NCBI GenBank assembly: GCA_018715625.1
Contig: DVLG01000054.1
Coordinates: 4,160-68,159 of the forward strand
Origin: Candidatus Scatovivens faecipullorum
GTDB lineage: Bacteria > Bacillota > Clostridia > TANB77 > CAG-508
Direction: 5' to 3'
DNA: 64,000 nucleotides
A program made the translations under genes and the position numbers. Below are positions 7,929 through 44,900 of this stretch, piece by piece. Within the stretch, counting starts at the first letter, position 1. Each line of letters opens with the position of its first letter. A model generated the notes under the pieces. The model was given only the letters and a program-made list of their open reading frames with translations, was not told the origin of the DNA and did no database searches.

Positions 7929-8202
7929 TAGCTCCTCACCTTTAATTTTCAATCTAATATAAGTATAGGCTTTTTTTACTTGCAAATCAAGCTGTTTTCC
8001 AGTATTTTCAATGGTTTTATGATTATACTGGTCTTTTATTATTTACGGAAAACATATATATAAGCATTTTATTTTTGTTTTATTAAATTTTAGTAACATT
8101 ATCTTTGTAACAAAATTGTAATATTTTCTTAACATTGTTGATATGTTTATTTATTTTTTTTGTTGTATAATATACATATACGAAAGATTTAAGGAGTTTT
8201 AG

Positions 8203-23211: not shown

Positions 23212-23240
23212 TCCTTTTCTATCTTTTTTAAGATCTTATA

Positions 23241-25193
23241 TTATCTATTTTCTAGAAGTTCCTGATAGTTGCTTACTACCTTTTGATGCCATTTTTCTGT
23301 ATTTTCTTTTTCAAAATTTGCTCTTGGATTTAATGTTAAAATTTTACTTTCTATATTTTTAACCCAATTCATAGTATGAGCTACTCTTCTCACATGTTTA
23401 CTATCATGTATTAATTGTTGTTTATTTCTCTTTTCACAAAAGTCTTTTGCAAGTCCTATTGGAAAAATATAAGTTGCATTCTCGATTGCTGGAATTAACC
23501 TATCTTTTTCATCTTTTTTATATACAACTTCTCCTTCTTTATTTCTAGTAACTTCATAAAATTTTTCTAAAATTGCTACTCTTTTATCAGGTACAATTAT
23601 TAGTTGATAGCCATCTAAAGAATTTCTTTTTGCTGATCCATCAGCCTTTCTTGCAGAATCATCTTGCATCAAAGGTTGTCCCTTTATAAAAATATCTTTT
23701 ATGTCTCCAATGCTTTTTAAATATTCTTTTCTTACTCTAGGATCTATTGTTACACCTTTACCACTTAAATTAGTTGATGATTCTACCATATTTGTGGCAT
23801 CTGAATAGTTTCTCTTTCCATTCTCAGTTTCATTTAAAAGTTGCTTAACTTTAAAATCATTCATGATTTCATCTAGATATTGTCTATCATTTTCTGAAAT
23901 ATAACCTTTATCTTTTAAAATATCTAAAAATTGCATAGATTGGTTAAAGTCTAATACTTCATGTGTTAGAAGTTCAGCAATCTTTTTAATATTAAAAACA
24001 TAATTAAAAGATATCTTATTAAATACTTCATCTGGAATTTGTTCTTCCATTTCAATATTAGGAATAACTGATGATTCTAATTCATCTATTGATATACTAC
24101 CTTTGCTATATAATAATAATTTACTACTAAAAGATACTTTTGATTTTTTTATTATATTAGAAACATTATTTTCTTTAAATACTTTTTTTAAATCTTCTTG
24201 GTCAAATACTCCTTGATAGAAAAGGTCGATAGCATAATTAGGATCCATATTATTTTTATTAATAATATTAATTATAGTCCATTTATCTATTATTCCTTTT
24301 TTTAAGAATTCTCCTAATTTCTCAGGTCTTATTCCATCTTCGAAAACTTTTCCGCTTCTTACAAATTTATGTAATTCATCACTTGAAAATCTTTCTTTAC
24401 TAGAATTCCTTTCTTGTCCTCTTGCTGAATAAACTCCAGAAATAGTAGAAACTCTATTTTTATTTTTAGCTTGTAATTCTCTATCTGCAATTAAAATTGT
24501 TTCAATTAAATCTTCCTTTAAGCTTTCTACACTATCATGAAATTGTAATGAAATTTTATTTTCATTTATTGTAATAATTTCTCCATTTTCAAAACAAAAT
24601 TCATTATAACCTTTATGTTGCCCTTGCTTGGCAGATTTAATCCAATCTAAATACTTTTTTGCAAGCATAGCATTATATAAAATAAAACTATCTGGATTTA
24701 TTGCACTTGCATTATCCTTTAATAATTCTTTTATTGTTTTTGCATTTTGACGTGTCACATAAGAATCTGAATCTTTCCTTAAAAAAATTCCTTTCTCCTC
24801 TTTAGTTAACATTTTAATTTTTTTTGATAAATCTTCTTTTTCTTTTATTAAATTATGAAATCTTGTTAAGATTTGATCTGTATCAGCATTTGAAACTCTT
24901 TTTTGCAAATCAGATAAGATTGATTTTATTTCTTCATCAACTTCTAAACTTCTTTTTTCTGTTTTAGAAAATCTCATTTCAATATTATTTGCCATTTTCT
25001 GTATTTCATTTGCTCTTTCAAGTAATCTTTCTCCTATTAGCATTTCTTCATAACTTTTACTCATTTTTTCATGTAATTTTTGAGAAATTAAAGTTCTATT
25101 TTTAGGTTTATCTATAAAAAATACTAAATCACTTGGATGAATATAAAAATCAAATTGTTCTATGTCTAAAATTTCTTTTATGCTTTTTTTCAT
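23241..25193 (-). CDS. Hypothetical protein, 650 aa, K/E-rich, no signal peptide
   Basis: Long ORF preceded by a TTTACA-17-TAAAAT promoter-like element and a GGAGAG RBS. No recognisable family. Confidence 0.5.
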   Translation of the reverse strand: MKKSIKEILDIEQFDFYIHPSDLVFFIDKPKNRTLISQKLHEKMSKSYEEMLIGERLLERANEIQKMANNIEMRFSKTEKRSLEVDEEIKSILSDLQKRVSNADTDQILTRFHNLIKEKEDLSKKIKMLTKEEKGIFLRKDSDSYVTRQNAKTIKELLKDNASAINPDSFILYNAMLAKKYLDWIKSAKQGQHKGYNEFCFENGEIITINENKISLQFHDSVESLKEDLIETILIADRELQAKNKNRVSTISGVYSARGQERNSSKERFSSDELHKFVRSGKVFEDGIRPEKLGEFLKKGIIDKWTIINIINKNNMDPNYAIDLFYQGVFDQEDLKKVFKENNVSNIIKKSKVSFSSKLLLYSKGSISIDELESSVIPNIEMEEQIPDEVFNKISFNYVFNIKKIAELLTHEVLDFNQSMQFLDILKDKGYISENDRQYLDEIMNDFKVKQLLNETENGKRNYSDATNMVESSTNLSGKGVTIDPRVRKEYLKSIGDIKDIFIKGQPLMQDDSARKADGSAKRNSLDGYQLIIVPDKRVAILEKFYEVTRNKEGEVVYKKDEKDRLIPAIENATYIFPIGLAKDFCEKRNKQQLIHDSKHVRRVAHTMNWVKNIESKILTLNPRANFEKENTEKWHQKVVSNYQELLENR

Positions 25194-29993: not shown

Positions 29994-30022
29994 ATTTTAT
30001 CATCTTTGTAACATGTTGTCAA
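29994..30022 (-). promoter_or_regulatory. Sigma-A promoter of the str operon
   Basis: Minus-strand TTGACA, 17 nt, TAAAAT, about 110 nt upstream of rpsL. Confidence 0.6.
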
Positions 30023-30055: not shown

Positions 30056-30286
30056 TTACTCATTTACAACTTTATCTGTAACATATTTTATAATTTTTAT
30101 ATCTTCAACAAATTTTATAAAGGTTTTTCCATCTTCATCAATTCTTTGAAAAACTTTGGGAACAATAGGTTTTCTATCTGAACTTGCAAAATAATATTTT
30201 TCTCCTTCATATTCAATAATATCTACAATTATATATTTCTCGTTTTCTCCTAAAGTTACTTTTCCACCTATTTTAAATTCTTTCAT
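30056..30286 (-). CDS. Small hypothetical protein, 76 aa (weakly DUF1292-like)
   Basis: Starts 2 nt after the stop of the 446 aa gene. The ENEKYIIVDIIEYEGEKYYFA pattern resembles DUF1292. Confidence 0.45.
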   Translation of the reverse strand: MKEFKIGGKVTLGENEKYIIVDIIEYEGEKYYFASSDRKPIVPKVFQRIDEDGKTFIKFVEDIKIIKYVTDKVVNE

Positions 30287-30288
30287 AA

Positions 30289-31629
30289 TTATTCTCCTAT
30301 TTCTATATCATCTTGTATTCTTTCTAATTCAATTGGGTCTTTAACATAATTTTCTTTTACTTCTTCTGGCAATAGCTCATAAGCAATTTGCTTGTAATCT
30401 CTTAAATCTTTTTCTGAAATATTTTCAGAGTTTTCTCCCAATGATTTTGTTAAAATTTCTTCTAAAAACTTTTGACTTTCTTCTATTGAATTTATTGATT
30501 GATAATCTTCTAATTTTAAATTATTTTCTAAATATAATATATTTCCGACTGCCTTTATCCTTTCAGGATAATCACTACTTACAATAAGTTTTATTTCATA
30601 TCCTTTTTCCCTAGCACTATTTTTAGCTTCCACAACATCAGTTGAAATTGGATTTCTAACATAAGAATAACCTTCCTCCCATAAGCCAGGTAATGCTAGC
30701 GGTAGTAATTCATAAGCTAGTTGTCTATAATCTCTTTTCTGTTCTTCTGAAAATGAATTATATCTTTCTTCCCCAAAAGAATCTTTTACAATTTTCTCCA
30801 AGTTTTCTTGATCTTTCAATACATTTAATGAATTTTTAAATTCATTAAATGTCATTCCTTTTTCCTCATTCAATATTCTTAAATATCCATCTAAAAGCTC
30901 TGTATCATCTAAATTAGCAAATACATAACCATCTTTTTCTTTAACTTTTTCTAAAAATTTTTCTAAATTAGCTTCGTACATAGCTCTATCATTTTCATCA
31001 AGTGTTTCTATTGTTACTACTTCATTATCAGTAGGATTAGAAATTGTATTTTTTATTTCTCCTCCTATGTGACCTGCTAATGCTAAAGATCCTGCTAATA
31101 GTGAAGCTGCCAGTCCTATCTTAAACGCCTTCCATCCCTTTCTTAATCTAACATCATCTTTTGCATCTTCATATTCTTGAACTTCTTTATAAAATCTTCT
31201 TTCAGATCTTTTCTTTGCGTTTTTAGACATTTCTATTTCTTTTTCAGAAATAAAATCATAATCTTCTTCTATATCCTCATAAAGTCCCTTGTCTAACGCA
31301 TGTTGTAAAATAATTCTAGTTAACAAATTTCTCTTTTTAGGTTCTGTATATCTAGTTTTATGGAATAATTTTTTTTCAATTTGTTTACTTATACTTGCAA
31401 TTCTTTTTTGTTTCTTCTTTTTATCACGAATTTGGGACTTTTGAAAGTTTTCAGTTCTTTTTGGACGTTTTATTTTTCTTCTAATTACCGTCTTTTTTTC
31501 ACTCATGGCAGAATCTTTATTTATTTTTTCAGAACCTCTTGTATTATTTGTTTTTTCTTCTTCTGATGTTTGAAGCATTTTTAAATAATCATCAAAAGAT
31601 TCAATTTCTATTGAGTTTTCCGTGCTCAT
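30289..31629 (-). CDS. Hypothetical bitopic membrane protein, 446 aa, with an internally repeated C-terminal domain
   Basis: Basic N-terminus (KKKKQKR). One TM (FKIGLAASLLAGSLALAGHIG). The motif RDY(R/K)Q(L/I)AYELLP occurs twice. Confidence 0.55.
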   Translation of the reverse strand: MSTENSIEIESFDDYLKMLQTSEEEKTNNTRGSEKINKDSAMSEKKTVIRRKIKRPKRTENFQKSQIRDKKKKQKRIASISKQIEKKLFHKTRYTEPKKRNLLTRIILQHALDKGLYEDIEEDYDFISEKEIEMSKNAKKRSERRFYKEVQEYEDAKDDVRLRKGWKAFKIGLAASLLAGSLALAGHIGGEIKNTISNPTDNEVVTIETLDENDRAMYEANLEKFLEKVKEKDGYVFANLDDTELLDGYLRILNEEKGMTFNEFKNSLNVLKDQENLEKIVKDSFGEERYNSFSEEQKRDYRQLAYELLPLALPGLWEEGYSYVRNPISTDVVEAKNSAREKGYEIKLIVSSDYPERIKAVGNILYLENNLKLEDYQSINSIEESQKFLEEILTKSLGENSENISEKDLRDYKQIAYELLPEEVKENYVKDPIELERIQDDIEIGE

Positions 31630-31673
31630 ATATGAGTCTCCTTTTACATAATATGTTTTTATATCAGTTATTT

Positions 31674-31871
31674 CTATCTCTCTTCTCTTTCAGAACTATC
31701 TTTTTCTTTTTTCGCAGTTGTTTTTTTAATTGGTTGTACAGAAGCATAATCACTTTTTTTATCTCCTGTAAATCCTGCATCAAAATCATATCTTCTTGGT
31801 TGTGGTTTATTTGATTTAACATCTGATTTTGTTTTTCTAAAAATTTCAAATAAATCTAATAATAACCCCAT
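31674..31871 (-). CDS. Small hypothetical protein, 65 aa, homologous to the C-terminal tail of the 1077 aa protein
   Basis: LLLDLFEIFRKTKSDVKSNKPQPRRYDFDAGFTGDKKSDY aligns with ALLVDDIYENARKTKTNVRRTKPQPRNYDYEAGYVGKKQPDY. Weak GGGAAAG RBS. Confidence 0.45.
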   Translation of the reverse strand: MGLLLDLFEIFRKTKSDVKSNKPQPRRYDFDAGFTGDKKSDYASVQPIKKTTAKKEKDSSEREER

Positions 31872-31890
31872 ATCTTTCCCTTTCTAAAAT

Positions 31891-31914
31891 AGAGATACTT
31901 TGCAAAGTATCTCT
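31891..31914 (-). terminator. Hairpin or terminator after the 1077 aa gene
   Basis: Perfect 24-nt palindrome AGAGATACTTTGCAAAGTATCTCT followed by ATTTTA on the transcript. Confidence 0.5.
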
Positions 31915-31930
31915 ATTTATTAATTTTATA

Positions 31931-34900
31931 TTATCTTTCTTCATCGTCTCTATCTTCTTTTTGTTTTTTATCTTGTTTATTTTTCTCTGGTGTTTTATCT
32001 TTTTTATCAGTTTTTGTTTCGATATCATCTTTTATAATATTTCCACCTCTTAAAACACCATCTTTTATTTCTACCACTTCTAAATCAGCTTCATAATCTG
32101 GTTGTTTTTTACCAACATATCCTGCTTCATAATCGTAATTTCTTGGTTGTGGTTTAGTTCTTCTTACATTTGTTTTTGTTTTTCTTGCATTTTCATAAAT
32201 ATCATCTACAAGTAATGCTGATGCTCCAACATCATAAGCTATACCTAATTTATCTAAAACACTAGTAACTCTTGTATTTTCCACCATTTTTGTTACATCT
32301 CTTGTTTTAGTAACCATCTCTGTAACTTTTTCCATGTGTCCAGGAACATCTATAACTTTTTTAACTTCAGTTCCAATTTGAGTTTTAGTTAATCCATCAT
32401 ATAAGTCTGTAAGTTTAACCCAACATTTATCTCCTACTGAAACATATAAGTCTGAAAGTGTATCAGGATTTACCTTATCAGCACCTATCGCATTAATGAT
32501 TTGTTCTACTGTAACATCTTGTTTCAATACTCCATTTGTTCCTAAAAAGCTTGCATCAAAAGCTCTATCTGTTAATGTTGGAGCTGTTAATCCAGCTGTA
32601 TCTGATAGACCTGTACCTTTATTTCCAACACCTTGGAACACAGCAGTGATTTTTTCATTACCTGTTAAATCATACATTTTTGGTCTAGTTTCTCCACCAT
32701 ATACTGAATAATATCCTTCAACTTGTTTACCAGCATTTGAACTCATTATATCTTCAAGTGTAGTACTTGAATGATCAGCTTTAGTTCCATAAACTGGTAC
32801 TGTTTGTTCTTTATATGTAGTTTCTACCCATTTTTCACTTTGTACTGGTTCTTGATATTGTTCTGGCACTGTAACTTGTTTTTGGGTATGCTCTACTAAC
32901 CATTGTTTTATTTTTGGTCCAACAAATTTCTTAATACCAAATCTAGTAAGCATTTTAATTCCTGTTACTGTTCTTGTAACATTTTCTTTATTTGCTTTAT
33001 CATGTTGGTCCATATCAACAGCATCAGTTTGTATTGTTTGTCTTATTTTCATGTTATCTGCTTTTTCTTTATCTAACTTAATTTGAGCTTCTGCTTTCTT
33101 TAATATTTCTAATGTATTTTCAAGCTTAGCTTTAGCTTGTGGATCTGTTGTTTTATCTAGGTCTTCTTTTAGCATTTCCATTTGCTCTTCTATGCTTTTT
33201 CCTGCAAATTCAATTTGTTTTTGTCTTGCAGCTTTAATTGCTTGATCTGTATATTTAGTTTTTATAGATTCTTTAATATCATGAGCTCCAGCAGATAAAA
33301 TTGCTTTATTACCTTCTTTTGCTTTAAATATACTATTAAATCTACTTGCAAAATATCCTTTGCCTTGTGATGCAAAATATTCTCTTCTTGCAACATATCT
33401 ATGTGTAAATTTATTAGAATATAATCCAGCTACATTACCTTTATTTACACCAGTAACCGCTCCATATATAGGTGCAACAATTTTTGAACCTATGAATTTG
33501 TTAATTGGAGCTGTTGTATGATTTCTTATAAATCTTCCTGCATTTCCAACTGCTCTTAATATATTTCTTACAGTTTGTCCTTCTTGCATTTTAGAATATG
33601 GAACTTTTTCACCATATTTTCCTAATGTCATTAAGTTTTTCTGTGTTGTAACTAATCTATTATATGCACTATTATTAGTTTCTATGTAAGATTTATCTCT
33701 TTCTGCAACAGCTTCTGGATTTTTAAATTTTGAATAAGCAGATATGTCTCCAGCTTCATATTTAGTTAATCTTTCTAATCTATCAGCATATTCTTCTAAT
33801 TGTAAAAATGCTAAATCATCTTCCATGCCTTCATAAGGTTCAACTGTTGAATAAACTCCTGTTTGTCTCTTACCATCTTTATCAACAAATTCAAATTCTT
33901 TTTCAACTATATGAGATTTGAATTCTTGCATTTTTTCTTTATATTCAGCTGATTTTTCCTTATTACCATAGTATTTATCAAGCATATCTGTTCTTCTAGC
34001 CATATATTCATCTGCTATAGCTTGTTCATCAATTTCAACTGGCATATCTGGATATTTTATTTCAACTTCGCCTTTTTCATTAATCTTAAATAAAGATTTT
34101 TCTTTAGCTAAGTCTTCTAACTCTTCAATTCTATTTTCTATAACTCTTTTTTGATTTGTTAAATCTACTATATTTCTTTTTTCTAATTCTTCTAAAGATT
34201 TATTAACTTCTTCAAGCTCTTTTTCATTTTCTGCAATACTTTTTTCTAATTCTGCAATTTTTTTATCATCTTCTGTTAGTTCTTTAGGTCCTTGTGAATT
34301 TAAAAGTGCAGATAATCTTTCTTTCCAAGCTTTTAGCTCTTCATATCTTGCAGGATTTAATTCATTTCCTCTTCCTGCTATAATAGCTTCTCTGTTTGCT
34401 ATTTTATCTTCTAAATCTTTTATTTCGCCATTTATAGCTGCTTCTCTTATTTCATCTGTTATTTTTCCAGAATTTAAATCAGCAAGTTGTTTTTTCCATT
34501 CAGCTAATTCTTCATATCTTGCAGGATTTAATTCGTTTCCTCTTCCTGCTATCATAGCTTCTCTATTTGCTATTTTATCCTCTAAATCTTTTTTTGCTTT
34601 TTCTGTAGCTGAATCAAGATACTCTTTTCCTGGTTCAACACTTGTTTTATCATCTTTTTTAGCAGCATTTTCTTTTAATTTTTCTAGCTCTTCTTTTTGT
34701 TTTGCTATTAATGCCTCTAGTTCGCTCTTACGTTTTCCTAAAGCAGAACTATCTAAATTGAATAACATCTTTTTGTATTCTTCTATTCTTTTTTCAATCT
34801 CTTCAATTTCTACAAAACTATATTCCTCTTTTGAAGTTTTTAGTAAATCTTCAAGCTCTTCAATTACATCATTAGCTTTTAAAACTTCTTTATTTTCTTG

Positions 34901-35164
34901 ATTGATTTGATTTACTTTTTCTTCAATTTCCTTTCTTTTCTGTTTTAGTTTTGCTAATTTTTCTTCTCTTTCAGAATCATCTTTAGCTGCTTCTTCCTCT
35001 TTAATTAAATCATTAAATTGGATTTCTAATATATTTAGAGCAGTAATTGGGCTTTTATCTCCTAAATCTTGATTTTGTATTTCTTCATATTTTGAAATTC
35101 TATCTTCAATTATCTCTTTTTTGACCCCATATTTAAATACTTCTTTTTCCTTTGGATCAGCCAT
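31931..35164 (-). CDS. Hypothetical giant protein, 1077 aa: coiled-coil-like N-terminal third and a likely globular C-terminal part
   Basis: Long ORF with an AGGAGG RBS, an E/K/L-rich heptad-like N-terminus and an internal 57-aa duplication. No signal peptide. Confidence 0.6.
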   Translation of the reverse strand: MADPKEKEVFKYGVKKEIIEDRISKYEEIQNQDLGDKSPITALNILEIQFNDLIKEEEAAKDDSEREEKLAKLKQKRKEIEEKVNQINQENKEVLKANDVIEELEDLLKTSKEEYSFVEIEEIEKRIEEYKKMLFNLDSSALGKRKSELEALIAKQKEELEKLKENAAKKDDKTSVEPGKEYLDSATEKAKKDLEDKIANREAMIAGRGNELNPARYEELAEWKKQLADLNSGKITDEIREAAINGEIKDLEDKIANREAIIAGRGNELNPARYEELKAWKERLSALLNSQGPKELTEDDKKIAELEKSIAENEKELEEVNKSLEELEKRNIVDLTNQKRVIENRIEELEDLAKEKSLFKINEKGEVEIKYPDMPVEIDEQAIADEYMARRTDMLDKYYGNKEKSAEYKEKMQEFKSHIVEKEFEFVDKDGKRQTGVYSTVEPYEGMEDDLAFLQLEEYADRLERLTKYEAGDISAYSKFKNPEAVAERDKSYIETNNSAYNRLVTTQKNLMTLGKYGEKVPYSKMQEGQTVRNILRAVGNAGRFIRNHTTAPINKFIGSKIVAPIYGAVTGVNKGNVAGLYSNKFTHRYVARREYFASQGKGYFASRFNSIFKAKEGNKAILSAGAHDIKESIKTKYTDQAIKAARQKQIEFAGKSIEEQMEMLKEDLDKTTDPQAKAKLENTLEILKKAEAQIKLDKEKADNMKIRQTIQTDAVDMDQHDKANKENVTRTVTGIKMLTRFGIKKFVGPKIKQWLVEHTQKQVTVPEQYQEPVQSEKWVETTYKEQTVPVYGTKADHSSTTLEDIMSSNAGKQVEGYYSVYGGETRPKMYDLTGNEKITAVFQGVGNKGTGLSDTAGLTAPTLTDRAFDASFLGTNGVLKQDVTVEQIINAIGADKVNPDTLSDLYVSVGDKCWVKLTDLYDGLTKTQIGTEVKKVIDVPGHMEKVTEMVTKTRDVTKMVENTRVTSVLDKLGIAYDVGASALLVDDIYENARKTKTNVRRTKPQPRNYDYEAGYVGKKQPDYEADLEVVEIKDGVLRGGNIIKDDIETKTDKKDKTPEKNKQDKKQKEDRDDEER
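34335..34591 (-). repeat. Tandem duplication, 171-bp period, inside the 1077 aa gene
   Basis: DLEDKIANREA(M/I)IAGRGNELNPARYEEL encoded twice, at about 34335-34420 and 34502-34591. Confidence 0.8.
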
Positions 35165-35203
35165 ATATTTTTCCTCCTAAATATATACTATTTATTTTAA
35201 CAA

Positions 35204-37201
35204 TTACTCTCTTTCTTCACCTTTTTCTTCTTTTGATTTTTTTGCATTCTCATCTTTTCCTTTTTCACCTTTTTCTGGTATAGGAGTTTTATCTTGTTTT
35301 TGGAATGGATCTTTTTGATCTTTTGGTTCTTTTGCTTTTGCTTCGTCTATTTCTTCATCATGATATATATATATACCATCTTCCTTAATACTTAAATTTC
35401 CAGTTGATAGATAATTAATTGCTTCTTTCTTATATTTTCTACTAGGCAAAAAGAATCTTAATTTTTGTAATAATGGTATAGGCTCATTATCTTCTAATTC
35501 ATTTTTTAATGCCCATGCTTCTGCTTTTAATGCAGCTTTTTGGAAAAATCCAGCATTTTCATATTCTCTTCTTCCATTTATTATTAATTTATTTTTACCA
35601 TCTTTACCATTATTATCGTCTTTGCCATCATTACCATCTTTACCGTCATTTTCATCTTTACCGTCATTTTCATCTTTACCGTCATTATCATCTTTGCCAT
35701 CATTTTCGTCTTTACCGTCATTTTCGTCTTTACCGTCATTTTCGTCTTTACCGTCATTTTCATCTTTGCCGTCATTTTCGTCTTTGCCGTCATTGTCATC
35801 TTTGCCGTCATTGTCATCTTTGCCAGGATTATCGTTTTCTGCTTTTTTATCTTTTCTTGAAATTATATCATTAATTTCTTTTGTAGCATCTTCTAATTCT
35901 TGTGCTATCAAAGCTTTTTGTTCATCACATAAATCTATTGCAGCTTGAATATCATTTAATTGATCTTTTAATGCTTCATACGTTTCATTTAATTTTTTTA
36001 CTTCTCCACCATTTGTTATTATTCTTGTGCCTTCTTGATATTCATATTTAAAATCTTTTAACTGTATTAAAATACCTTGCATTTCATATTTTACTTTTTC
36101 TACTTCTGAATTTAACCTTGCTTTTTCTTGTGTAAAATATTTGGATTTTTCATCTCTCAAATCACTTGCTTTCATTTTTGTTTCTGGAGATTTCTTTTCT
36201 TCCTCAACTTTTTCTTGTCTCTCTTCTAGTTCTTTAACTCTTTTTTCTGCTTCTGCAATTACTTCTTTTAATTCGCTTTTTGCTCTAATTGCTTCGACAT
36301 AATCCATATCTCTTGTATCTAAGTTTTCTAATTCTTCTTTATATTTTTCTACTCTAAGTTTTGCAGCTCTTAGTTCATTATTTTCTAAAGAAATAGAACT
36401 TCTTAAGTCAACTGCTTTTGATTCTAATTTTTGATACTCTGCATTTCCTTCTTTTTTTCCTTCATCTTCCATTTTATGCATTTCTAATTCTGTTTTTTTC
36501 AAATCTGCTTCTAATTCTTCAACTCCAGCAAAATGTGCTGATTCTACTTTTTTAGCAAATTCTGTATCCTTATCTGGACCATCAGAATTAAGATGTGGTT
36601 TTATTCCATCTACTTTATGTTGGATATCTGCTTTTTTAGCTTCAAATTCCTCAATCTTTCTTTTTATTTTATCAACTTCACTCATAATTTTACTTCCTTT
36701 CTCACTTTTTTTATTATTATCATTTTTTTGATTTTCTTTATCTTTCTTCTTTTTGCTACTATTTTCTTTGTCACTACTTTCTTTTTCAGTATTTTCTTTA
36801 CTAGTGCTATCTTTTTTAGACTTTTTTTCTCCAGTATCTTTTTTACTTTTCTGTTCTAGTCCTTTTATGTATTTTTCTAATACATTAATTACTGATTTAC
36901 AATAATCTATATCTTCTTTTGAAAGATCATTTTTCAAAATAAATTCTTCTAGGTTTGATTTTGATCTTTCAGCTTTTTCTCTCCCGCCAAGAACTTGTAT
37001 AGCATTCTGCTTATTTGAAAATCTTAAATTAGCTCCTCCCTTAATCATATAAGTTACTTGCATAATTTCATTGGCTTCATATCTTCCAAATTTGCTTACT
37101 GCTTTAGAAATCTCTCTTTCAGATTTCTTATCTAACTTTTTTTCAGAAATAAGTTTAACTAGTTTAATCATATCTTCAAAAGACATATTTTTTTGCGACA
37201 T
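35204..37201 (-). CDS. Hypothetical protein, 665 aa, coiled-coil-like with an acidic GKDEND repeat tract
   Basis: Long ORF with a GGAGG RBS and its own promoter. K/E-rich. About 13 tandem hexapeptide repeats. Confidence 0.6.
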   Translation of the reverse strand: MSQKNMSFEDMIKLVKLISEKKLDKKSEREISKAVSKFGRYEANEIMQVTYMIKGGANLRFSNKQNAIQVLGGREKAERSKSNLEEFILKNDLSKEDIDYCKSVINVLEKYIKGLEQKSKKDTGEKKSKKDSTSKENTEKESSDKENSSKKKKDKENQKNDNNKKSEKGSKIMSEVDKIKRKIEEFEAKKADIQHKVDGIKPHLNSDGPDKDTEFAKKVESAHFAGVEELEADLKKTELEMHKMEDEGKKEGNAEYQKLESKAVDLRSSISLENNELRAAKLRVEKYKEELENLDTRDMDYVEAIRAKSELKEVIAEAEKRVKELEERQEKVEEEKKSPETKMKASDLRDEKSKYFTQEKARLNSEVEKVKYEMQGILIQLKDFKYEYQEGTRIITNGGEVKKLNETYEALKDQLNDIQAAIDLCDEQKALIAQELEDATKEINDIISRKDKKAENDNPGKDDNDGKDDNDGKDENDGKDENDGKDENDGKDENDGKDENDGKDDNDGKDENDGKDENDGKDGNDGKDDNNGKDGKNKLIINGRREYENAGFFQKAALKAEAWALKNELEDNEPIPLLQKLRFFLPSRKYKKEAINYLSTGNLSIKEDGIYIYHDEEIDEAKAKEPKDQKDPFQKQDKTPIPEKGEKGKDENAKKSKEEKGEERE
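35596..35830 (-). repeat. 18-bp tandem repeat, about 13 copies, encoding (N/D)DGKD(E/D)
   Basis: The plus strand reads ccgtcattttcatcttta and close variants, head to tail. The repeat also produces three artefactual ORFs in other frames. Confidence 0.9.
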
Positions 37202-37255: not shown

Positions 37256-37284
37256 ATTTTAGCACAAATACTGGGTTTTTTCAA
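37256..37284 (-). promoter_or_regulatory. Sigma-A promoter for the 665/1077 aa genes
   Basis: Minus-strand TTGAAA, 17 nt, TAAAAT, about 50 nt upstream of the start at 37201. Confidence 0.5.
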
Positions 37285-37313: not shown

Positions 37314-38762
37314 TTATTTTTTGTCAATTAATTCATTACTTAAAATATTCATAGATCTTTCAGCCAATTTACTATATCTTATTTTCTTATCTTTAATCTT
37401 TTCTTCTAATTGTGGTAGTATTCCAAAATTAGCATTCATTGGTTGAAATTTATCATTTTTAGTAGATATATATTCGGATAAAGCTCCTATCACCGTCTCC
37501 TTTGGAAAAGTAATTTTTTCTTTTTCATAAAGATTATCTATTTTTTCTTTATAATTTATGTAAACTTTTTTATCTATATTGTATTTTACATTAGTTTCTT
37601 TTTTTATATTGTTAAATATATTATACATTTTTACAGCATTAATTCCAGCAACAAACCCTGATGAGATTGATTCAACATAACCTTCTACTCCTGTTATTTG
37701 GCCTGCAAAAAATATTCTTCTATCACTTTTTAAATTATACGTATTATCTAAAACTAATGTAGAATTTATATATGTATTTCTATGCATAACTCCATATTTA
37801 ACAAAATTTGCTTTTTCTAAACCTGGAATTAAAGAAAATACCCTTTTTTGCTCTCCATATTTTAAATTAGTTTGAAAGCCTACTATATTATATAAATTTC
37901 CTTCTTGGTTGTCTTGTCTTAGTTGCACTACTGCATAAGGCCTTTTTCCTGCTTTAGGATCTGTAAATCCTACTGGTTTTAAAGGTCCATATCTTAATGT
38001 ATCTATGCCTCTTTTTGCCATAATCTCAATCGGCATACAACCTTCAAATATTTCTCTTTTTTCAAATTCATGTAAGGTTACTACTTCAGAATTTATCAGC
38101 TCATTATAAAATTTCTCATATTCTTCTTTATTCATAGGAAGATTTATATAGCTTCCTTTTATATCTTTTATTCTTTCCAACCAAACATCATAATCTTCAT
38201 CTTTTTCTCTTTCTTGAACATACCTATCACCAAAAAATCCTATATTCATATCTATAGAATCTTTTTCAACTATTGGTGCAGCAGCATCATAGAAAAATAA
38301 TTTATCATTTCCTGTTAAATCAGAGATTTTTTTTGATAGACTTTCAGAAGTAAGTGGACCAGTTGCTATTATAACCACACTATCTTTTGGAATTTCTTTT
38401 ACTTCTTCTCTTACAACTTCTATATATTCATTTTCTTCAATTCTAGCAGTAACTAATTTTGCAAATTTTTCTCTATCTACTGCTAAAGCTTGTCCTGCTG
38501 GAACTTGCACACTATCTGCTACAGAAATTAATTCACTACCTAATCTTCTCAGCTCTTCCTTTAATAAGCCACATGCATTGGTCAAAAGATTTGATTTAAA
38601 AGAATTACTACATACGATTTCAGCCAAATCTTTATTAGAATGTGCCTCTGAAAATTTTATAGGCTTCATTTCATAAAGCTTTACTCTTATTTTTCTTTTT
38701 GCAATTTGCAAAGCTGCTTCTGAACCTGCAAGTCCACCACCTATTACTATAATTTCTTTCAT
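37314..38762 (-). CDS. trmFO: Methylenetetrahydrofolate--tRNA-(uracil-5-)-methyltransferase TrmFO
   Basis: N-terminal FAD motif [19 protein letters not shown] and full-length TrmFO/Gid-like sequence. At 482 aa it appears to carry a K/N-rich insertion near the C-terminus. Confidence 0.88.
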
Positions 38763-38793: not shown

Positions 38794-41790
38794 TTACATT
38801 GTTATATCTTCATATTCTTCAGTTTTTCCTTCTTGATTTTTTTGTCCTTGTTTTTCTCCAGTTACTGTTTGGCTTTGTGACTGTTCTTGAATTTTTCCAG
38901 ATATTCCTTCAACTCTATATTTGTCAAAAGCAGATTCTTGAACTTTTTTAGGATTTTGTCCATTTATTTCATTCTTTTCTTCATTTTTTTCTTCAGGATT
39001 TTTTCCTGCAAATAAATCTTTAAATTTTTTAAATGCATCTCTAGCATTATTCTTTAATTCATTAATTGCTTTTTTAAATCTGCCAAAAATAGAATTATCT
39101 TGTGGTACTAAACTCTTTTCTTCTGTTAAATCTTGAAAATCTCTATTATCTGTACTAAGTTCTTCTGTTTTTAAGGTTGATTGTTTTCCAGATTCCTTTT
39201 TTTCACTTTCATTTGTTTCTTCTGCTTCTTTCTGATTGATTAAATCATCTAATCTTTCTTTGTTTTTTTTCTCCTTAAAACTTATTATCTCACTAAGCTT
39301 TTCATCATCAGAATTTGATTTTAATGCTCCAAAATCAGAATCTTTTAGTTTAGAATATTCTGTCATCTTTCCAACAAAATATACTTTTTGATATTTATCA
39401 TAAAGATTTTTTCCTATTTCATCTAAATTATTTTCTCTTAATCTATTTACTGTAGTATAATTTTTGTATTCTGACAATAGTACATCTTCGTTTACAATTC
39501 CATTTCCATTTTCATCAAATTCTATAAATTTATTTTCCTCTGTATTCATTATTTCTAATGCTCTATTAGATAATTTTAAAAGCATTTGGCTTTCCTCTGG
39601 AGTATCAGCACTTTTAGCTAGCTCTCTTGAAAGTATAGTTATTCTTAAATATTCAAATCTGTCTTGCTTATCTAAATGATAATAATCTGGATTCAAAGTT
39701 AATACATTCTTTTGATAAAAATCCAATACTTTTGCATTTAATTTATCTTTTTCGAATCTTCTCTCTTGTTCTTTTAGCTCTTGTAACTGTTCCGGAGTAT
39801 ATTCAGAAATTTTTTTTGCCAATTCTGGATTCTCTCTTTGCATTTTAGCTAACATATTTTGGCATATTTTATATTTTGTTTGACCATTCGCTATTTCTTC
39901 TTCAGATAATTTATCTTCTAAAAGTAATATTGCCATATATCTATGAAAAAACACTTCCTCTTTTGTACTTATCCAAGAACCTATACTAGATTTTTTATAT
40001 AATTCCATATATGTTTTTTCATCACTCTCAGTAAACTCCATATTAGATTTTTTGTTAAATGCATTTTGTAATTCACTTGCACTATAATCTACTTCTAATA
40101 TTTCACTTCTAATATTAAACATTTGATCCATTTCATGATCTTGTATCTTTGCTTTAGAATCAATTACCTTACCTAATCCCATATCAATAAATTTTCTTTG
40201 TATAGAATAAAATTTATCTTCACATGAATTACTACTATATTCCCCATCTGAAGGAATTTTTAGTACTTCATTAATAACATCTTCAAGAGCTTTACTATTT
40301 TTGTTAAATTCTATTTCTGGATGCAATTTTTTTAGTACAACTTTAGATTTTTCAACAACTTCTTTATTTTTTGAAGATAATCCTACTAAAAAAGATGCTG
40401 TATAATTTCTTAACATATCTTCAGATATTATCTCTTTTTTTTCACAATTTTCTCCTATTAGTTCATACAGTTGGGAAATATCTTTAGCAACTATTTTATC
40501 TTTTAAATTATTGATATAACCTTTTAATGTTTCTTTTCCTTGTTTTGTTATATTTCCATTTTCATCTTTCAAATCTTGTGTAAAATATCTAAGTTCTGGA
40601 TTTTTTTCATAAATTGCTTTTCTTTTATCTAATAAACTGATATACGCTGGACTTAATTTATCCATCACCATAAGTTTTGATTCAATTGCAAACATTTTAT
40701 TTTTTAAGCTATCTATATATTTATTAATATCCTCTTGACCTTTTTCAGTTAATTTTCCATTGTCATCTCTTAATTCATCAAAAATTTTTCTTAATTCAGG
40801 ATTTTTGTTATAAATCTCACTTCTTTGTTTTAATAATTGTTCATATCTGTTAGAAGACTTATCTGTAAGAATTATTTTAGTTTCAATGCTAAGTATTATT
40901 TTTTTATTGTCTATTTCCTTTTTCATATTATTTTTGGCTTCTTCAGTAACAGTCTTCAGAGTCGCAAATATTTCCGGAATATTATTAGAATCAATTGTTC
41001 TTTTTGTTATTATACTTAACAGTTCTGCAAGAGCTTTATTACTACTTTCACCTTCTGGTATTTTATCCGCAAATATTTCACGAATTTTCTTATATGCCAT
41101 TTCTCTGTGTTCTTCTTTACCATTAACAATAATTTCTAATAGTGGAAGACATTTCTTAGCTTTTTCTTCATCTAACTCTTTTTGCCAATCTATTTCATCT
41201 AAACCACCTAAAATATTTTCTCTATAATCATCCAAATCATTTTCCAAATCATTATTTGAATTGTCAAATAGTTGTATACCAGCAGTATAATCAATCATAC
41301 CTCTATTTTCGCTTCTTTCTAAAAAGTCTTTTGGTAAAATCTCATCTGCCATCATCTCTCTTAATATTTTTTTACCTATTTCTTGATTTTTAGTATAATA
41401 TTCATTACTTTCAATTCCTACCCTAACTGCTTGTCTATAACTTGCTTCTGGATCTTTTTCTCCTGTTTTAGGGTCTATAACTATACCATTTGGTAATTTA
41501 TTTATATATCTAACCAAGTTTATATAAACATTTTTTAAAGTATCCATAGCACTATCTCTAGTTTCTACTGAACTAGTTAAGTTTTCATATAAATTAGCTA
41601 TCATTACATCTGTAATACCATACTGATTAAGTTTTCTTAAATTAACTATAACAGGACTATTAGACCTTGCTAGAATATCATATACATCTATGACTTTTCC
41701 ATCAAGACCATTATCAGCAATAAGATTATCTCTATCTTTTGTTTTATCTATTCTTTTTTTTCTATCTTCTCTTTCTTCTTTAGTTGCCAT
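38794..41790 (-). CDS. Hypothetical giant helical protein, 998 aa (paralog of the 1277 aa protein)
   Basis: Long ORF. It ends 31 nt upstream of trmFO with no terminator between them. Internal repeats around NPELR...D.NG.(L/I)T..G. Several blocks align with the 1277 aa protein. Confidence 0.6.
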   Translation of the reverse strand: MATKEEREDRKKRIDKTKDRDNLIADNGLDGKVIDVYDILARSNSPVIVNLRKLNQYGITDVMIANLYENLTSSVETRDSAMDTLKNVYINLVRYINKLPNGIVIDPKTGEKDPEASYRQAVRVGIESNEYYTKNQEIGKKILREMMADEILPKDFLERSENRGMIDYTAGIQLFDNSNNDLENDLDDYRENILGGLDEIDWQKELDEEKAKKCLPLLEIIVNGKEEHREMAYKKIREIFADKIPEGESSNKALAELLSIITKRTIDSNNIPEIFATLKTVTEEAKNNMKKEIDNKKIILSIETKIILTDKSSNRYEQLLKQRSEIYNKNPELRKIFDELRDDNGKLTEKGQEDINKYIDSLKNKMFAIESKLMVMDKLSPAYISLLDKRKAIYEKNPELRYFTQDLKDENGNITKQGKETLKGYINNLKDKIVAKDISQLYELIGENCEKKEIISEDMLRNYTASFLVGLSSKNKEVVEKSKVVLKKLHPEIEFNKNSKALEDVINEVLKIPSDGEYSSNSCEDKFYSIQRKFIDMGLGKVIDSKAKIQDHEMDQMFNIRSEILEVDYSASELQNAFNKKSNMEFTESDEKTYMELYKKSSIGSWISTKEEVFFHRYMAILLLEDKLSEEEIANGQTKYKICQNMLAKMQRENPELAKKISEYTPEQLQELKEQERRFEKDKLNAKVLDFYQKNVLTLNPDYYHLDKQDRFEYLRITILSRELAKSADTPEESQMLLKLSNRALEIMNTEENKFIEFDENGNGIVNEDVLLSEYKNYTTVNRLRENNLDEIGKNLYDKYQKVYFVGKMTEYSKLKDSDFGALKSNSDDEKLSEIISFKEKKNKERLDDLINQKEAEETNESEKKESGKQSTLKTEELSTDNRDFQDLTEEKSLVPQDNSIFGRFKKAINELKNNARDAFKKFKDLFAGKNPEEKNEEKNEINGQNPKKVQESAFDKYRVEGISGKIQEQSQSQTVTGEKQGQKNQEGKTEEYEDITM

Positions 41791-41945: not shown

Positions 41946-44900
41946 TTATTCAACAGTAAGTTCCGCCTCTTGATTTGCTGTTTTTTCTGAAGACTTATGC
42001 AATTCATTTATTGCTCTTTGATGATTTAAACCTTCTACTTTTATTCTCTCATCAAAAGTATTTTGAATTTCTTTATATTCAATTTGTGACTTTCTAATAC
42101 TATCACTAACTTTATTTTCATTTTCAAATTTTTCTCTTTTTAAAAATATATTTTTTACTCCATTTACTAATTTACCTAAAACTCCTGTTTTTCTATTAAT
42201 CAAAGCATTTCCATCTGTTAATTTTTTAGTTTTTATTCTTTTTATGGTATCCTTTACTCTTTCCATAAATCCTGTTTTCCTATATTTTTTTTCATTTATT
42301 ACACTAAAATTTATTTCCTCTATTTTTAGTGACGAATTACTTTCTGCATTATTTTCTTTAAACTCTGATTCAGGTGGTATCTTTTCTCTCTTAGTTTCAT
42401 CTTCATTACTTCTTTCAATTTGATTTGAGTTTCTATTAGTATTATGCTTATTTCTACTTGAAGTTTCTAATAATTCAGTTATTCTCCCAACTTTTCTTTT
42501 TTCAATTTCTAATAATTTTTTTATCCTATTTTCCTCATTTAAAGGAGTAAAATATTTTTCATCTAATCTACTAAAACTATATAGCTGAGAAGGTACATAA
42601 AAATTCTCATGTCTTTTAGCTACTAAATTTCTAGCTTCTTCATAACTCGTACATTGTTTTTTATAAAAAGCTACTGAATTGATCTCTTCAAGAATACTAT
42701 TTTCATTTATAACTCGTTTTCCATTTACATCAAAACTAATAAAATTTTTTTCTTTAGAATTCATTAATTCTAAAGTTCTGTCACTAAGCTTTTGAATTAA
42801 TGCTTTATGATCAGGATTTTCAATAGTTTCTGCAAATTTACTAGCAAACATTGCATATCTTAAAACATTTTTTTTATCAGAAACTATAAGTTTACTATAA
42901 TTTTCAGCTTTTACTAAAATATCCTTTTGAAAGTTTTCTAATAAATCAGACACTAATTTATTTTTTCCAAATGTCTTTGCCTCAGATACTATTTTATTTG
43001 CAAATTCTTCATCATTTTCAAATTTTTCCTTGAAATCTGGATTTTCTCTTAATAATCTATTCAACCTTTTAAAATATTTTTGATTTGATCTTTGAGATTC
43101 CGGACTTTTTTCATTATTTTCAGACAAAAATTTTTTCAAATAAATTATCTCATATCTTGTTACATTTGATTTATCAGATATCCAAGAATTAACTGTAGTA
43201 TCACAGTATAACTCTTTAAATATAGTCTCGTCTTTCTCTGAAAAATCTATTACTGACCCTTTAAATCTATTTTTTATTTCACTTTTCGTTAAATCTGTTT
43301 CTGTAGTTTTTATGGGAACAGCAATTCTTTCAAAAAAATCTTCTGTTTCTTTATCATTAATTTTTAATTTATTTAAATCTATTATATCTTTTTCATTTAA
43401 AATCTTTCTAATTAGGTTTCTTTTTATTTCTCTATTTTTCTTATAAAAGTCATCGCTTATACTATTTCCATAAACAACATGGTACATTTTTTCTTTTAAT
43501 TGTTCATAATCATTTATTTTTGAAAAACCTTGAAACATCTTTTTGAACTTCTCTATCGAATTTATTCTAATTTCTGGATCATCATTCTCAATTCCTAAAA
43601 TCAATATACTAGTAAAATTTTTTCTCTCTTCTGTATCTAATCCTTCTACATTAGTTGCATTTATATTATATTTTATCGTTTCATTTAACAAATTATTTAC
43701 ATATGATTTTAATTCAGTAACACCTTGTCCTGTTAACTCTCCATATATATTTCTAAAGTCTTTAACTAATTGTGAACTTTCTGGATATTGAGTTAAATAT
43801 TCTTTCATAATTGCTAAATTATTTTCATAATCAGCTGTTCCTTTTGAATATTCAATTTTAGCCTGTAAAAGTAAAATATTTTCTCTTTCTGCTTCTTCTA
43901 TTGTAATACTCTTCATGCTTTGAGGAATCAATCTAACGTTAATATCATTTTTTAATTCTTTATCTAAAATGTCATTTATTCTATCTGAATGATAGCTTTT
44001 TAACTTACTTATTAATGCTTCATCTAAAGCTCCTAAATTCATTTTTTCTAATATATCCACAATTGTGCTTTCGTCTTCAAATGTTAATTTATCTGCATTT
44101 ATTTCACTAAGTTTTTCTATGAACTTTTGAGATTTTTCTTTTATTCTTCCAATTTCTTTCTTTTTACTATCTAATTCTCCTTTCATAATAATAGTATTTC
44201 TTTTAACACTTTCAGGTAGTAGATTTCTTTGTAATATCTGTTGAATTCTAGTTATACTAACAGAACCATCTTTGTTAAAAATTCCTTCTGTATCTATATT
44301 TTTAAAGTATTCTTCAAAATATTCTCTATACTGTAAAATATATGTATCCATATATTGCTTTATATCATCTTTTTTCCCGCCTTCTCGATAATATATGTTA
44401 TATAAATTTATAATCTCTAACCCCTTATAATCGTGAATTCCATCACTTTTTCGATTATAATTTTCTGTTAAAATTTTAAATATTTCTTTTTCTTTCAAAG
44501 ATCTATGTATATTATCTACTGAAAGTAAATTTGTATTTAAACAATAACTTTTATTTTCATTTTCTGGATTCTCTAGATTTTGTAATATTCTCATAAATTT
44601 TATGTGACAAGTATTTGAATTAAATTCATGAGATGAAACAAATTTATTAAAATCTTCTTCATTGTTTATCTTTATTCCTAAAGTAGTATATATATAATTC
44701 CATAGGGTTCCTTTATCTAAATTAGACATATTTAATTTCTCAAGTAGAAAATCTCTTTGATTTTTAATTATTTTACTACTTGAGTGAATTTCTGCTTTGC
44801 TTAATGCTAAAATAATTTTTTCTTTAATTATAGGATTTAATTTGTCAAAATCTATATCTTTTTCTTTTTCCTTTTCTCTTTCTAAAGCTACTAATATATT

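Follow-up and report, generated by a model that had tools for sequence, protein, structure and literature searches.

Organization of the trmFO–rpsL locus

We analysed a stretch of 64,000 nucleotides (nt) from Candidatus Scatovivens faecipullorum (contig DVLG01000054.1, positions 4,160 to 68,159; hereafter the window), in which five co-oriented minus-strand genes are found between trmFO and rpsL. In order of transcription they encode proteins of 665, 1077, 65, 446 and 76 amino acids (aa), which are named here by their lengths. All five are real genes. Their homologues are under purifying selection: the ratio of nonsynonymous to synonymous divergence (dN/dS) lies at 0.19–0.40 in four cases, and the 65-aa gene has an identical counterpart in the locus used for comparison. 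The five open reading frames (ORFs) among the minus-strand ORFs of the window fall exactly where a preliminary description of this DNA had placed them.

The window is low in GC (22–32%; the genome as a whole has roughly 25–30%) and nearly every gene lies on the minus strand. The module has the same GC content as the genes that flank it, which are trmFO (37314–38762; NCBIfam TrmFO, E 6e-190) on one side and rpsL, rpsG, fusA and tuf on the other. In the direction of transcription, the division and cell wall (dcw) cluster from mraZ to murG is followed by an orphan of 415 aa, topA, orphans of 1277 and 998 aa, and trmFO. Beyond the five genes come rpsL, rpsG, fusA, tuf, orphans of 650 and 258 aa, plsX, acpP and rnc.

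The region of the 1077-aa gene is 98% identical to the human-gut metagenome-assembled genome (MAG) "uncultured Clostridiales bacterium MGYG-HGUT-04073", which represents the same or a very close species and is called the reference MAG below. Remoter relatives are found in Clostridia MAGs from the guts of sheep, deer, rabbit, mouse and human, with Candidatus Scatovivens as the closest named organism among them, and outlying relatives of the module proteins are found in Bacilli MAGs. The exact 446-aa sequence is recorded on 140 contigs. The module is chromosomally fixed and specific to lineages of uncultured low-GC gut Clostridia. In GTDB the genus Candidatus Scatovivens presumably belongs to the order TANB77. 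The TANB77 clade has recently been linked to immunotherapy response (PMC11680825).

Conservation of gene order

To describe synteny, we compared the window proteins, by BLAST and iterated profiles, with all ORFs of 37 fetched loci (designated below by L numbers). The order trmFO, (665-like), 1077 family, 65-like tail mimic, 446-like, 76-like, rpsL is observed in L009, L011, L013, L015, L016 and L017, and again in L026, L029, L030, L035 and L037. Each of the 16 non-redundant loci with a 446-like gene has a 76-like gene immediately downstream of it. The preliminary description had treated the five genes as one group, and the order is indeed kept in more than 10 lineages, which contradicts a picture of scattered homologues without co-occurrence. 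It had also taken the position among division and translation genes as a hint to function; this position reflects conserved synteny and is not evidence of function.

The module is nevertheless not one indivisible five-gene unit, since its pairs occur apart and a conserved hairpin splits 665/1077 from 65/446/76. L001–L003, L010, L012 and L014 keep a 665 + 1064 + 70 aa arrangement with no 446 + 76 pair there. A short 446 + 75 pair stands in L027 and L034 behind an unrelated 718-aa protein, with no 1077 homologue. No 665 homologue is present in L016, L017 and L035, and the 665 family is confined to a subclade.

The 1077 + 65 pair is also found without 446 + 76 at L020 (6941–12193 of CABUJR010000022, the 98%-identical reference MAG), as a paralogous pair. 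This pair combines a 1658-aa protein, which has an N-terminal Transglut_core and a C-terminal domain of the 1077 type, with a tail mimic of 85 aa encoded behind it, and it lies directly upstream of secE-nusG-rplK. Both copies of the pair in the reference MAG therefore precede translation/transcription operons, one on the rpsL side and the other on the secE-nusG-rplK side. Two very remote arrangements are worth describing. At L022, a bona fide DUF1292 gene (PF06949, E 6e-9) follows a very distant 1077 homologue, and at L025, a Bacilli MAG, a distant 1077 homologue is followed by two small genes, one of them 76-like (hhalign E 1e-4), and a 69-aa tail mimic.

The slot between trmFO and rpsL holds further pairs of genes in L017 (12197–14194), L035 (6896–8893), L037 (1487–3983) and L026 (3203–3358). 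Each is composed of a helical protein of about 50 aa (...MTDDVI....EE..EY..L..KIKARL) and then a lysine- and glutamate-rich (K/E-rich) protein of 602–1494 aa, and together they form a second recurring arrangement of a small plus a large gene.

Promoter, hairpin and expression units

The start codon of the 665-aa gene is preceded, at a distance of 55 nt, by a sigma-A-type promoter (Table 1). Promoter-like matches occur at chance rate in this AT-rich DNA, with 52 found and 47.6 expected. The promoter is credible because its architecture recurs in position: of 9 intergenic regions compared, 7 have at this place a hexamer TTGAAA or TTGACT, a spacer of 17 nt and a -10 extended by TGn, a count that takes in both the window and L009, which are of the same genus and near-identical in this region.

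A palindromic hairpin occupies the gap between the 1077- and 65-aa genes. Its stem has a free energy of -15.4 kcal/mol with only 3 G–C pairs, and the T-run behind it is short (4–5 T). A strong hairpin with a T-run stands in the same gap between large and small gene in 9 of 11 loci, and the stem sequences are completely different from locus to locus; what is conserved is therefore the structure, not the sequence. Positional conservation thus upholds both regulatory elements of the preliminary description, the TTGAAA-17-TAAAAT promoter before the gene set and the terminator-like palindrome before the 65-aa gene.

Immediately behind the hairpin come the ribosome-binding site and the ATG of the 65-aa gene, which leaves no room for a promoter in between. 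As genes follow without a visible promoter, the hairpin is likely a partial terminator or an RNA-stabilising 3' hairpin. The 65-, 446- and 76-aa genes are probably expressed by read-through past it, and so presumably at a lower level. The module comprises two expression units, one running from the promoter through 665 and 1077 and the other, with 65, 446 and 76, behind the hairpin.

Table 1. Features of the module and its boundaries (positions in the window)
Feature	Position	Strand	Remarks
Sigma-A-type promoter TTGAAA-17-(TGc)TAAAAT	37256..37284	-	Upstream of the 665-aa gene; TG-extended -10
665-aa K/E-rich helical protein	35204..37201	-	Ends ...EEKGEERE
18-nt tandem repeat, 12.4 copies	35599..35821	-	Inside the 665-aa gene; encodes the DGKDEN acidic tract
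1077-aa protein	31931..35164	-	Helical/coiled-coil N-terminal third and conserved C-terminal domain; ends ...DRDDEER
Family-defining C-terminal domain of the 1077-aa protein	32075..34051	-	Residues 372-1030 (~660 aa)
Tail peptide of the 1077-aa protein, LLVDDIYENARKTKTNVRRTKPQPRNYDYEAGYVGKKQPDYE	32087..32212	-	Residues 985-1026; copied by the 65-aa protein
Palindromic hairpin	31887..31918	-	14-bp stem, 4-nt loop, then TTTTA; between the 1077- and 65-aa genes
65-aa tail mimic, MGLLLDLFEIFRKTKSDVKSNKPQPRRYDFDAGFTG...	31674..31871	-	K-rich stretch; ends ...SSEREER
446-aa bitopic membrane protein	30289..31629	-	
Predicted transmembrane helix of the 446-aa protein	31039..31107	-	Residues ~175-197
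76-aa small soluble protein	30056..30286	-	Start 2 nt after the stop of the 446-aa gene
Separate strong rpsL-rpsG-fusA-tuf promoter TTGACA-17-TAAAAT with TG	29994..30022	-	Downstream boundary

The 1077-aa protein and its tail mimic

In the AlphaFold2 model of the 1077-aa protein, helices extend over residues 16–354 and are followed by a mixed alpha/beta C-terminal part. What defines the family is this C-terminal domain, not the coiled coil. A profile of the domain finds only 122 proteins among 1.84 billion cluster representatives, and the domain is almost always C-terminal, behind N-terminal parts of widely varying length. In 9 of 34 long family members, among them the paralogue in the reference MAG, an N-terminal Transglut_core (PF01841) replaces the coiled coil; the window's 1077-aa protein itself has no transglutaminase domain in Pfam. 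Transglutaminase or leucine-rich repeat (LRR)-like N-termini are carried by other members of the family, and at L004 a 1624-aa Transglut_core paralogue adjoins a SpaA/CLIPPER surface protein.

Across 43 diverse full-length members, about 55 positions of the domain are conserved in at least 90% of sequences, with motifs that include DM..K.YG, T.GK.GE, RN, HR..AR..Y, GN.A.L.AG and QTD....H. Invariant residues of the window's protein include D393, K397, D490, N498, R547, H588, R589, R593, D714 and H721. As the near-invariant residues are mostly polar, the alignment is more suggestive of specific binding or catalysis than of a passive strut.

The 65-aa protein is 50% identical to residues 985–1026 of the 1077-aa protein over 42 aa (E 2e-15). 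The same tail-copy relation is observed in 9 further loci compared, or 10 with the window. The small proteins share a start MGL.., the core LLDxYENTRKTKTxVK..KP..R.YDFDAG.TG.KK.D, a lysine-rich stretch and an acidic run with a final Arg.

An acidic, arginine-ended C-terminus

An end of the type [DE][DEGT]R, optionally with one or two further residues, is found on 23 of 70 ORFs of the trmFO–rpsL slot in 16 loci, against 0 of 136 ORFs flanking the slot in the same loci. Within the window it is carried by exactly 3 of 46 ORFs, which are the adjacent 665-, 1077- and 65-aa genes. The signature extends to unrelated slot proteins, such as the 718-aa protein of L027 (...DDDDGR) and a 702-aa protein of L037 (...DRDDEER), and to a distant 1077-family member of 1448 aa in L029 (...HDDDGR). 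Related ends are seen in the 446-like proteins of L011, L013 and L015 (...EIGER, ...EDYER and ...SDLER, respectively). Among 120 representatives of the 1077-domain family, 63 are Arg-ended, including nearly all complete ones.

No bacterial system that recognises an Arg at the C-terminus is known to us. The end might be an undescribed targeting or recognition signal of reduced-genome gut Firmicutes, for which the 1077 domain would be the reader or enzyme and the mimics of 65–85 aa free tags or competitors; we consider this doubtful. If so, otherwise unrelated K/E-rich slot proteins may be marked for a common machinery, which could serve export, membrane tethering or covalent attachment.

The 665-aa protein

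The 665-aa protein is composed of 21% K + R and 25% D + E, making 46% charged residues, and has no hydrophobic segment. A conserved N-terminal part of ~120 aa is followed by a conserved coiled-coil core (~276–454), the acidic repeat tract and a conserved C-terminal block of ~70 aa. In relatives, the DGKDEN tract is replaced by other low-complexity repeats (PEDKK, EEEH, PTPAPTPG). The 665 and 1077 families resemble each other only along a coiled-coil stretch of 53 columns (probability 62%), on which we do not rely.

The membrane protein and the 76-aa protein

The 446-aa protein is composed of a polybasic low-complexity region (residues 1–92), a conserved juxtamembrane cytoplasmic helical domain (93–174), a transmembrane helix and an ectodomain (198–446). 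Only one hydrophobic window meets the cut-off for a transmembrane segment, and does so barely (best 19-residue window 171–189). The N-terminal side carries a net charge of +14 and the C-terminal side of -28. An internal duplication is detected in the ectodomain (32% identity over 73 aa, E 2e-7), and the AlphaFold2 model is all-alpha, with a predicted local distance difference test score (pLDDT) of 73.5. In the 446 family, with 84 members, the best-conserved block is the cytoplasmic juxtamembrane RYTEPKKRNLL...YKEVQ.YEDA. No signal peptide or transmembrane segment is found in the 665-, 1077-, 65- and 76-aa proteins.

The 2-nt spacing between the 446- and 76-aa genes would allow translational coupling. 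The 76-aa protein is possibly a remote relative of DUF1292, judging from weak profile similarity. The window protein itself gives no PF06949 match at E ≤ 1, in a scan whose filters drop most matches above ~0.1. Three of nine 76-aa homologues give sub-threshold matches (12–17 bits, E 0.01–0.37; the gathering score is 24 bits), and profile comparisons of the family are weak, with a jackhmmer link to a true DUF1292 protein at E 4e-4 and an hhalign E of 0.007.

The protein features given in the preliminary description agree with these data. Composition and the 18-nt repeat confirm a K/E-rich 665-aa protein with an acidic repeat tract; the AlphaFold2 model matches a 1077-aa protein with a coiled-coil-like N-terminal third and a likely globular C-terminal region; and the 50% identity over 42 aa bears out a 65-aa copy of its tail. 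Charge, hydrophobicity and duplication support the description of the 446-aa protein as bitopic, with a basic N-terminus, one transmembrane helix and a duplicated ectodomain, and the ORF coordinates reproduce the start of the 76-aa gene 2 nt past the 446 stop.

Searches for known families, folds and mobile origin

Searches of Pfam, NCBIfam, PHROGs and PADLOC with the five proteins and the two upstream orphans returned nothing usable, with 0 PADLOC matches for the module proteins. A single weak PHROG match joins the repeat region of the 665-aa protein to a tail-fibre family (E 8e-6) and falls in a low-complexity region. At E ≤ 0.1, Pfam gives no match for 48 members of the 446 family, and for 34 members of the 1077 family only the Transglut_core match described above. 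Profile searches of the PDB with alignments of the 1077 domain, the 446 family and the 76 family yield chance-level matches only, for example AcrIIA4 with the 76-aa profile (E 0.006). Foldseek comparison of the AlphaFold2 models of the 446- and 1077-aa proteins with the PDB and BFVD gives no match at E ≤ 0.001, and the template modelling scores are at most about 0.16–0.17 when query-normalised and at most 0.32 when target-normalised.

Four of the proteins thus belong to no described family and the 76-aa protein has only a faint DUF link, as the preliminary description, which recognised no family, had anticipated; Pfam, NCBIfam, PHROGs, PADLOC, PDB sequence searches and Foldseek agree in this. 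Clear annotation hits to phage or known surface proteins, which that description had envisaged as speaking against its reading, were not found either. Literature searches on DUF1292, UPF0473/YrzB and TANB77 brought up no functional information. In metagenome contigs, the 446-family profile finds only 6 loci. Viral contigs (IMG/VR) contain no relatives of the module proteins, and tblastn against phage and plasmid records gives no match. By these null results and its flank-like GC content, the module is neither mobile nor foreign.

Several specific candidates were rejected. A Pup/UBact-like tag was considered for the 65-aa protein, whose C-terminus is ...EER with an invariant Arg and not GGQ/GGE or Q/E; the window and related loci hold no PafA/Dop-type ligase-like gene, the rest of the genome lying outside this search. 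For the 446-aa protein, a function as anti-sigma factor or of the RodZ type was dismissed, as Pfam detects no helix-turn-helix or zinc-binding anti-sigma domain. An SMC-like ATPase was excluded for the 665-aa protein, which scores 10.6–17.9 bits against SMC models, in the coiled-coil region only, far below the family cut-offs of 300–729.

Recombination within the module

Comparison of the window (30289–37201) with L009 (7856–14893) reveals a mosaic. The 1077- and 65-aa genes are 99.4–100% identical in DNA, with a synonymous divergence (dS) of 0.017, and this identity extends through the first ~100 codons of the 446-aa gene. In comparison, dS is 0.52 for trmFO and 0.5–1.4 for the flanks. The 446-aa gene as a whole has 62% aa identity and a dS of 0.70, with a breakpoint inside it near codon 100: codons 1–92 have a dS of 0.02, and the juxtamembrane domain a dS of 1.17 with dN/dS 0.15. 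The ectodomain repeats are only 46–47% identical in aa sequence (dN/dS 0.32–0.59). The 665-aa gene is intermediate (dS 0.15).

Given the breakpoint inside the 446-aa gene and the divergence beyond it, the ectodomain and the 76-aa gene are exchangeable, fast-evolving alleles. Such fast evolution of the ectodomain would be expected of a surface-exposed part.

Neighbouring genes

Between topA and trmFO lie two large minus-strand orphans, of 998 aa (38794–41790) and 1277 aa (41946–45779). They are distant mutual paralogues (27% identity over ~490 aa), remain without a match in Pfam, NCBIfam, PHROGs and PADLOC, and are unrelated to the 1077 and 665 families by hhalign (E 0.19–0.34). Both are hypervariable, with 51–57% aa identity to L009 and dN/dS 0.43–0.49. 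L006 has an identical 1077-aa gene, yet a different gene content between topA and trmFO, with ORFs of 106 and 85 aa that match the C-terminal end of the 1277-aa protein and a 1113-aa relative of the 998-aa protein. On the other side of the module, orphans of 650 and 258 aa (22435–25193, minus strand) are located between tuf and plsX. The 258-aa orphan is kept in related genera at 50–55% identity, and the 650-aa orphan is variable (74% identity to L009, dN/dS 0.30).

In the division cluster, a 415-aa protein without a family match on record (48199–49446, minus strand) follows murG, in the usual position of FtsQ/DivIB; its gene is followed by topA and not by ftsA-ftsZ. The class B penicillin-binding protein (PBP) of the cluster (54374–56165, minus strand) is split into overlapping ORFs, PBP_dimer of 321 aa and Transpeptidase of 282 aa. 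At the junction, near 55200–55222, one extra base stands just before the active-site motif, and the frames read ...YEP/RFNF-stop in one case and MNHGSTFKLVTAS in the other. The identical split is called in the independent assembly L007. It could be explained by a genuine split or pseudogene, by a programmed frameshift or by an assembly error that recurs.

Two further minus-strand genes of the window were assigned domains from precomputed Pfam matches on identical contigs. One encodes a stand-alone transglutaminase-like protein of 413 aa (15275–16516, PF01841) upstream of addB, and the other a 736-aa Peptidase_C1 protein (5775–7985) with lectin-like and faint dockerin matches.

Discussion

We tentatively infer that the module products form an assembly tethered to the membrane and that the 65-aa protein represents a docking peptide in free form, and regard this reading as possible rather than probable. 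The 665- and 1077-aa proteins would be cytoplasmic and elongated, made from the sigma-A promoter, with the C-terminal domain of the 1077-aa protein performing a specific binding or catalytic task. The end of the latter protein would comprise a docking peptide, LLxDIYENxRKTxTxV..KPxPRxYDxxAGxTG, then a lysine-rich linker and the acidic Arg-ended C-terminus. Read-through would yield the 65-aa protein in smaller amounts, and this protein would occupy the site of the docking peptide and so cap, compete with or tune the attachment of the large protein. The 446-aa protein and its 76-aa partner would form the membrane anchor. Its juxtamembrane domain and polybasic N-terminus may pair with the acidic tails and repeats and hold the acidic-tailed proteins at the membrane, and the fast-evolving duplicated ectodomain may contact the wall or the outside. 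The whole would resemble a MapZ/EzrA-like membrane-tethered scaffold built from unrelated proteins.

The kept gene order, the kept positions of promoter and hairpin, the shared tail, the topology of the 446-aa protein and the conservation of its juxtamembrane block argue for this arrangement. Of the membrane-tethered structural or cytoskeletal assembly proposed in the preliminary description, the conserved neighbourhood, the bitopic partner and the two long, mostly helical K/E-rich proteins stand; nothing points to the cytoskeletal or polymerising function. Several observations weigh against a tethered scaffold. As the 1077 + 65 and 446 + 76 pairs each occur apart, an anchor role of the 446-aa protein is not obligatory. 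The invariant polar residues and the transglutaminase fusions in 9 of 34 members fit an enzyme or effector at least as well. The ...GER and ...YER ends on the predicted extracellular C-termini of 446-like proteins are at odds with a purely cytoplasmic tail signal, and the structure models of the 1077- and 446-aa proteins, of moderate confidence (pLDDT 71 and 73.5, respectively), match nothing known.

MapZ/LocZ, the streptococcal anchor of the mid-cell FtsZ ring, shares with the 446-aa protein a bitopic plan with a cytoplasmic N-terminus of ~170 aa, one transmembrane helix and a helical ectodomain of two subdomains. There is, however, no sequence or fold match in Pfam (which presumably includes models of the MapZ ectodomain), PDB sequences or Foldseek; MapZ belongs to the Lactobacillales, whereas the 446-aa protein is from Clostridia, with an N-terminus that is polybasic and of low complexity. 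EzrA, DivIVA/GpsB and SMC-like coiled coils have long K/E-rich helices like those of the 665-aa protein and the N-terminal third of the 1077-aa protein. Neither of the latter contains an ATPase head, a DivIVA or EzrA domain or a transmembrane helix, and the core of the 1077-aa protein is a domain that is not a coiled coil. The pairing of a peptide in a large protein with a small peptide-only protein follows the logic of the C-terminal peptides of FtsZ and SSB, of MciZ and of plant microProteins. No homology is involved, and in the module a lysine-rich linker and an acidic Arg-ended terminus follow the peptide.

The 76-aa protein is similar to DUF1292/UPF0473 (YrzB of Bacillus subtilis) in size and in the pattern ...Y.IVDI.E..G..YY.... 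To our knowledge, no function has been assigned to DUF1292. Genes of this family usually stand next to ruvX and mltG. The neighbourhood with ruvX is mentioned in PMC13014144. In multidomain Transglut_core proteins among the relatives, the transglutaminase is fused to the 1077 domain at the place where the window's protein has a coiled coil. Loci of LXG toxins of type VII secretion systems (T7SS) also combine a large helical protein without signal peptide with adjacent small genes; in contrast to these, the module has no LXG domain in Pfam, its variable end is N-terminal and no T7SS genes are nearby. Judged by absent matches rather than by a demonstrated mechanism, the module appears to stand outside every known kind of system.

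Other explanations place the proteins elsewhere in the cell or deny that they act together. The acidic-Arg end could sort the 665-, 1077- and 65-aa proteins, and the unrelated slot proteins, to the outside by a non-classical route, so that they meet the 446 ectodomain in a surface structure exposed to phage or host immunity. The signature on unrelated slot proteins (23/70 against 0/136 flanking; 3/46 in the window) fits this, as do the ...EIGER, ...EDYER and ...SDLER ends of some 446-like proteins on the predicted outside, the fast-evolving, recombination-exchanged ectodomain, the hypervariable orphans next door, and, within the family, the L004 paralogue beside a SpaA/CLIPPER protein and the transglutaminase or LRR-like N-termini. 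We nonetheless find it somewhat unlikely, given proteins that have neither signal peptide nor transmembrane segment, no transporter or secretion gene in or beside the module at any locus, and a very high charge with long coiled coils that are typical of cytoplasmic proteins; we also know of no bacterial export signal that ends in Arg. That the locus is instead made of three independent lineage-specific units (665; 1077 + 65; 446 + 76), adjacent only through the conserved trmFO/str order, we judge unlikely. For each unit there are indeed lineages in which it occurs without the others, the row is interrupted by a terminator-like hairpin, and the same housekeeping genes are interspersed with orphans of 1277, 998, 650 and 258 aa. 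However, the units are found together in more than 10 lineages, 76-like or DUF1292-type genes stand beside very distant 1077 homologues outside the synteny (L022, L025), the acidic-Arg end is common to the 665-, 1077- and 65-aa proteins, and a recombination tract runs as one block from the 665-aa gene, with its intermediate dS, into the 446-aa gene.

Orphan, fast-evolving, low-complexity and K/E-rich proteins without export signals would also suit morphogenetic proteins of the spore coat or exosporium, made in the mother cell and accompanied by transglutaminase-type cross-linking in the paralogues; transglutaminase-like domains are indeed present in paralogues and stand-alone in the window. 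This is very unlikely, as the conserved promoter, with its extended -10, belongs to the vegetative sigma-A type, no sporulation gene is found in the 64-kb window or the related loci, relatives occur in reduced-genome Bacilli MAGs, and no known coat family is matched in Pfam or NCBIfam. A mobile or conflict element, be it a polymorphic toxin with its immunity protein, a phage remnant or an anti-phage defence, is largely refuted and highly improbable. The succession of a large and a small gene recalls toxin–immunity pairs, there are recombination and hypervariable neighbours, and the weak PHROG tail-fibre match to the low-complexity repeat of the 665-aa protein (E 8e-6) could be cited for a phage origin. 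Yet the variable part is N-terminal and the conserved part C-terminal, the opposite of polymorphic toxins, and the small protein copies the tail of the large one instead of having an immunity-like fold. The chromosomal slot between housekeeping genes is, moreover, fixed across genera, PADLOC, viral contigs, phage and plasmid records give no match, and the GC content equals that of the flanks.

The organisms that carry the module are prevalent, uncultured gut Clostridia with reduced genomes, and large genes kept beside the str operon in such small genomes under a vegetative promoter are unlikely to be dispensable. With the module defined, several widespread families of "hypothetical" proteins receive names and domain boundaries. 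The fast-evolving, recombining ectodomain of the 446-aa protein could be used to mark strains and may be a point of contact with phage or host. The C-terminal signature is a possible new recognition signal, and together with the tail mimic it offers testable handles on the module.

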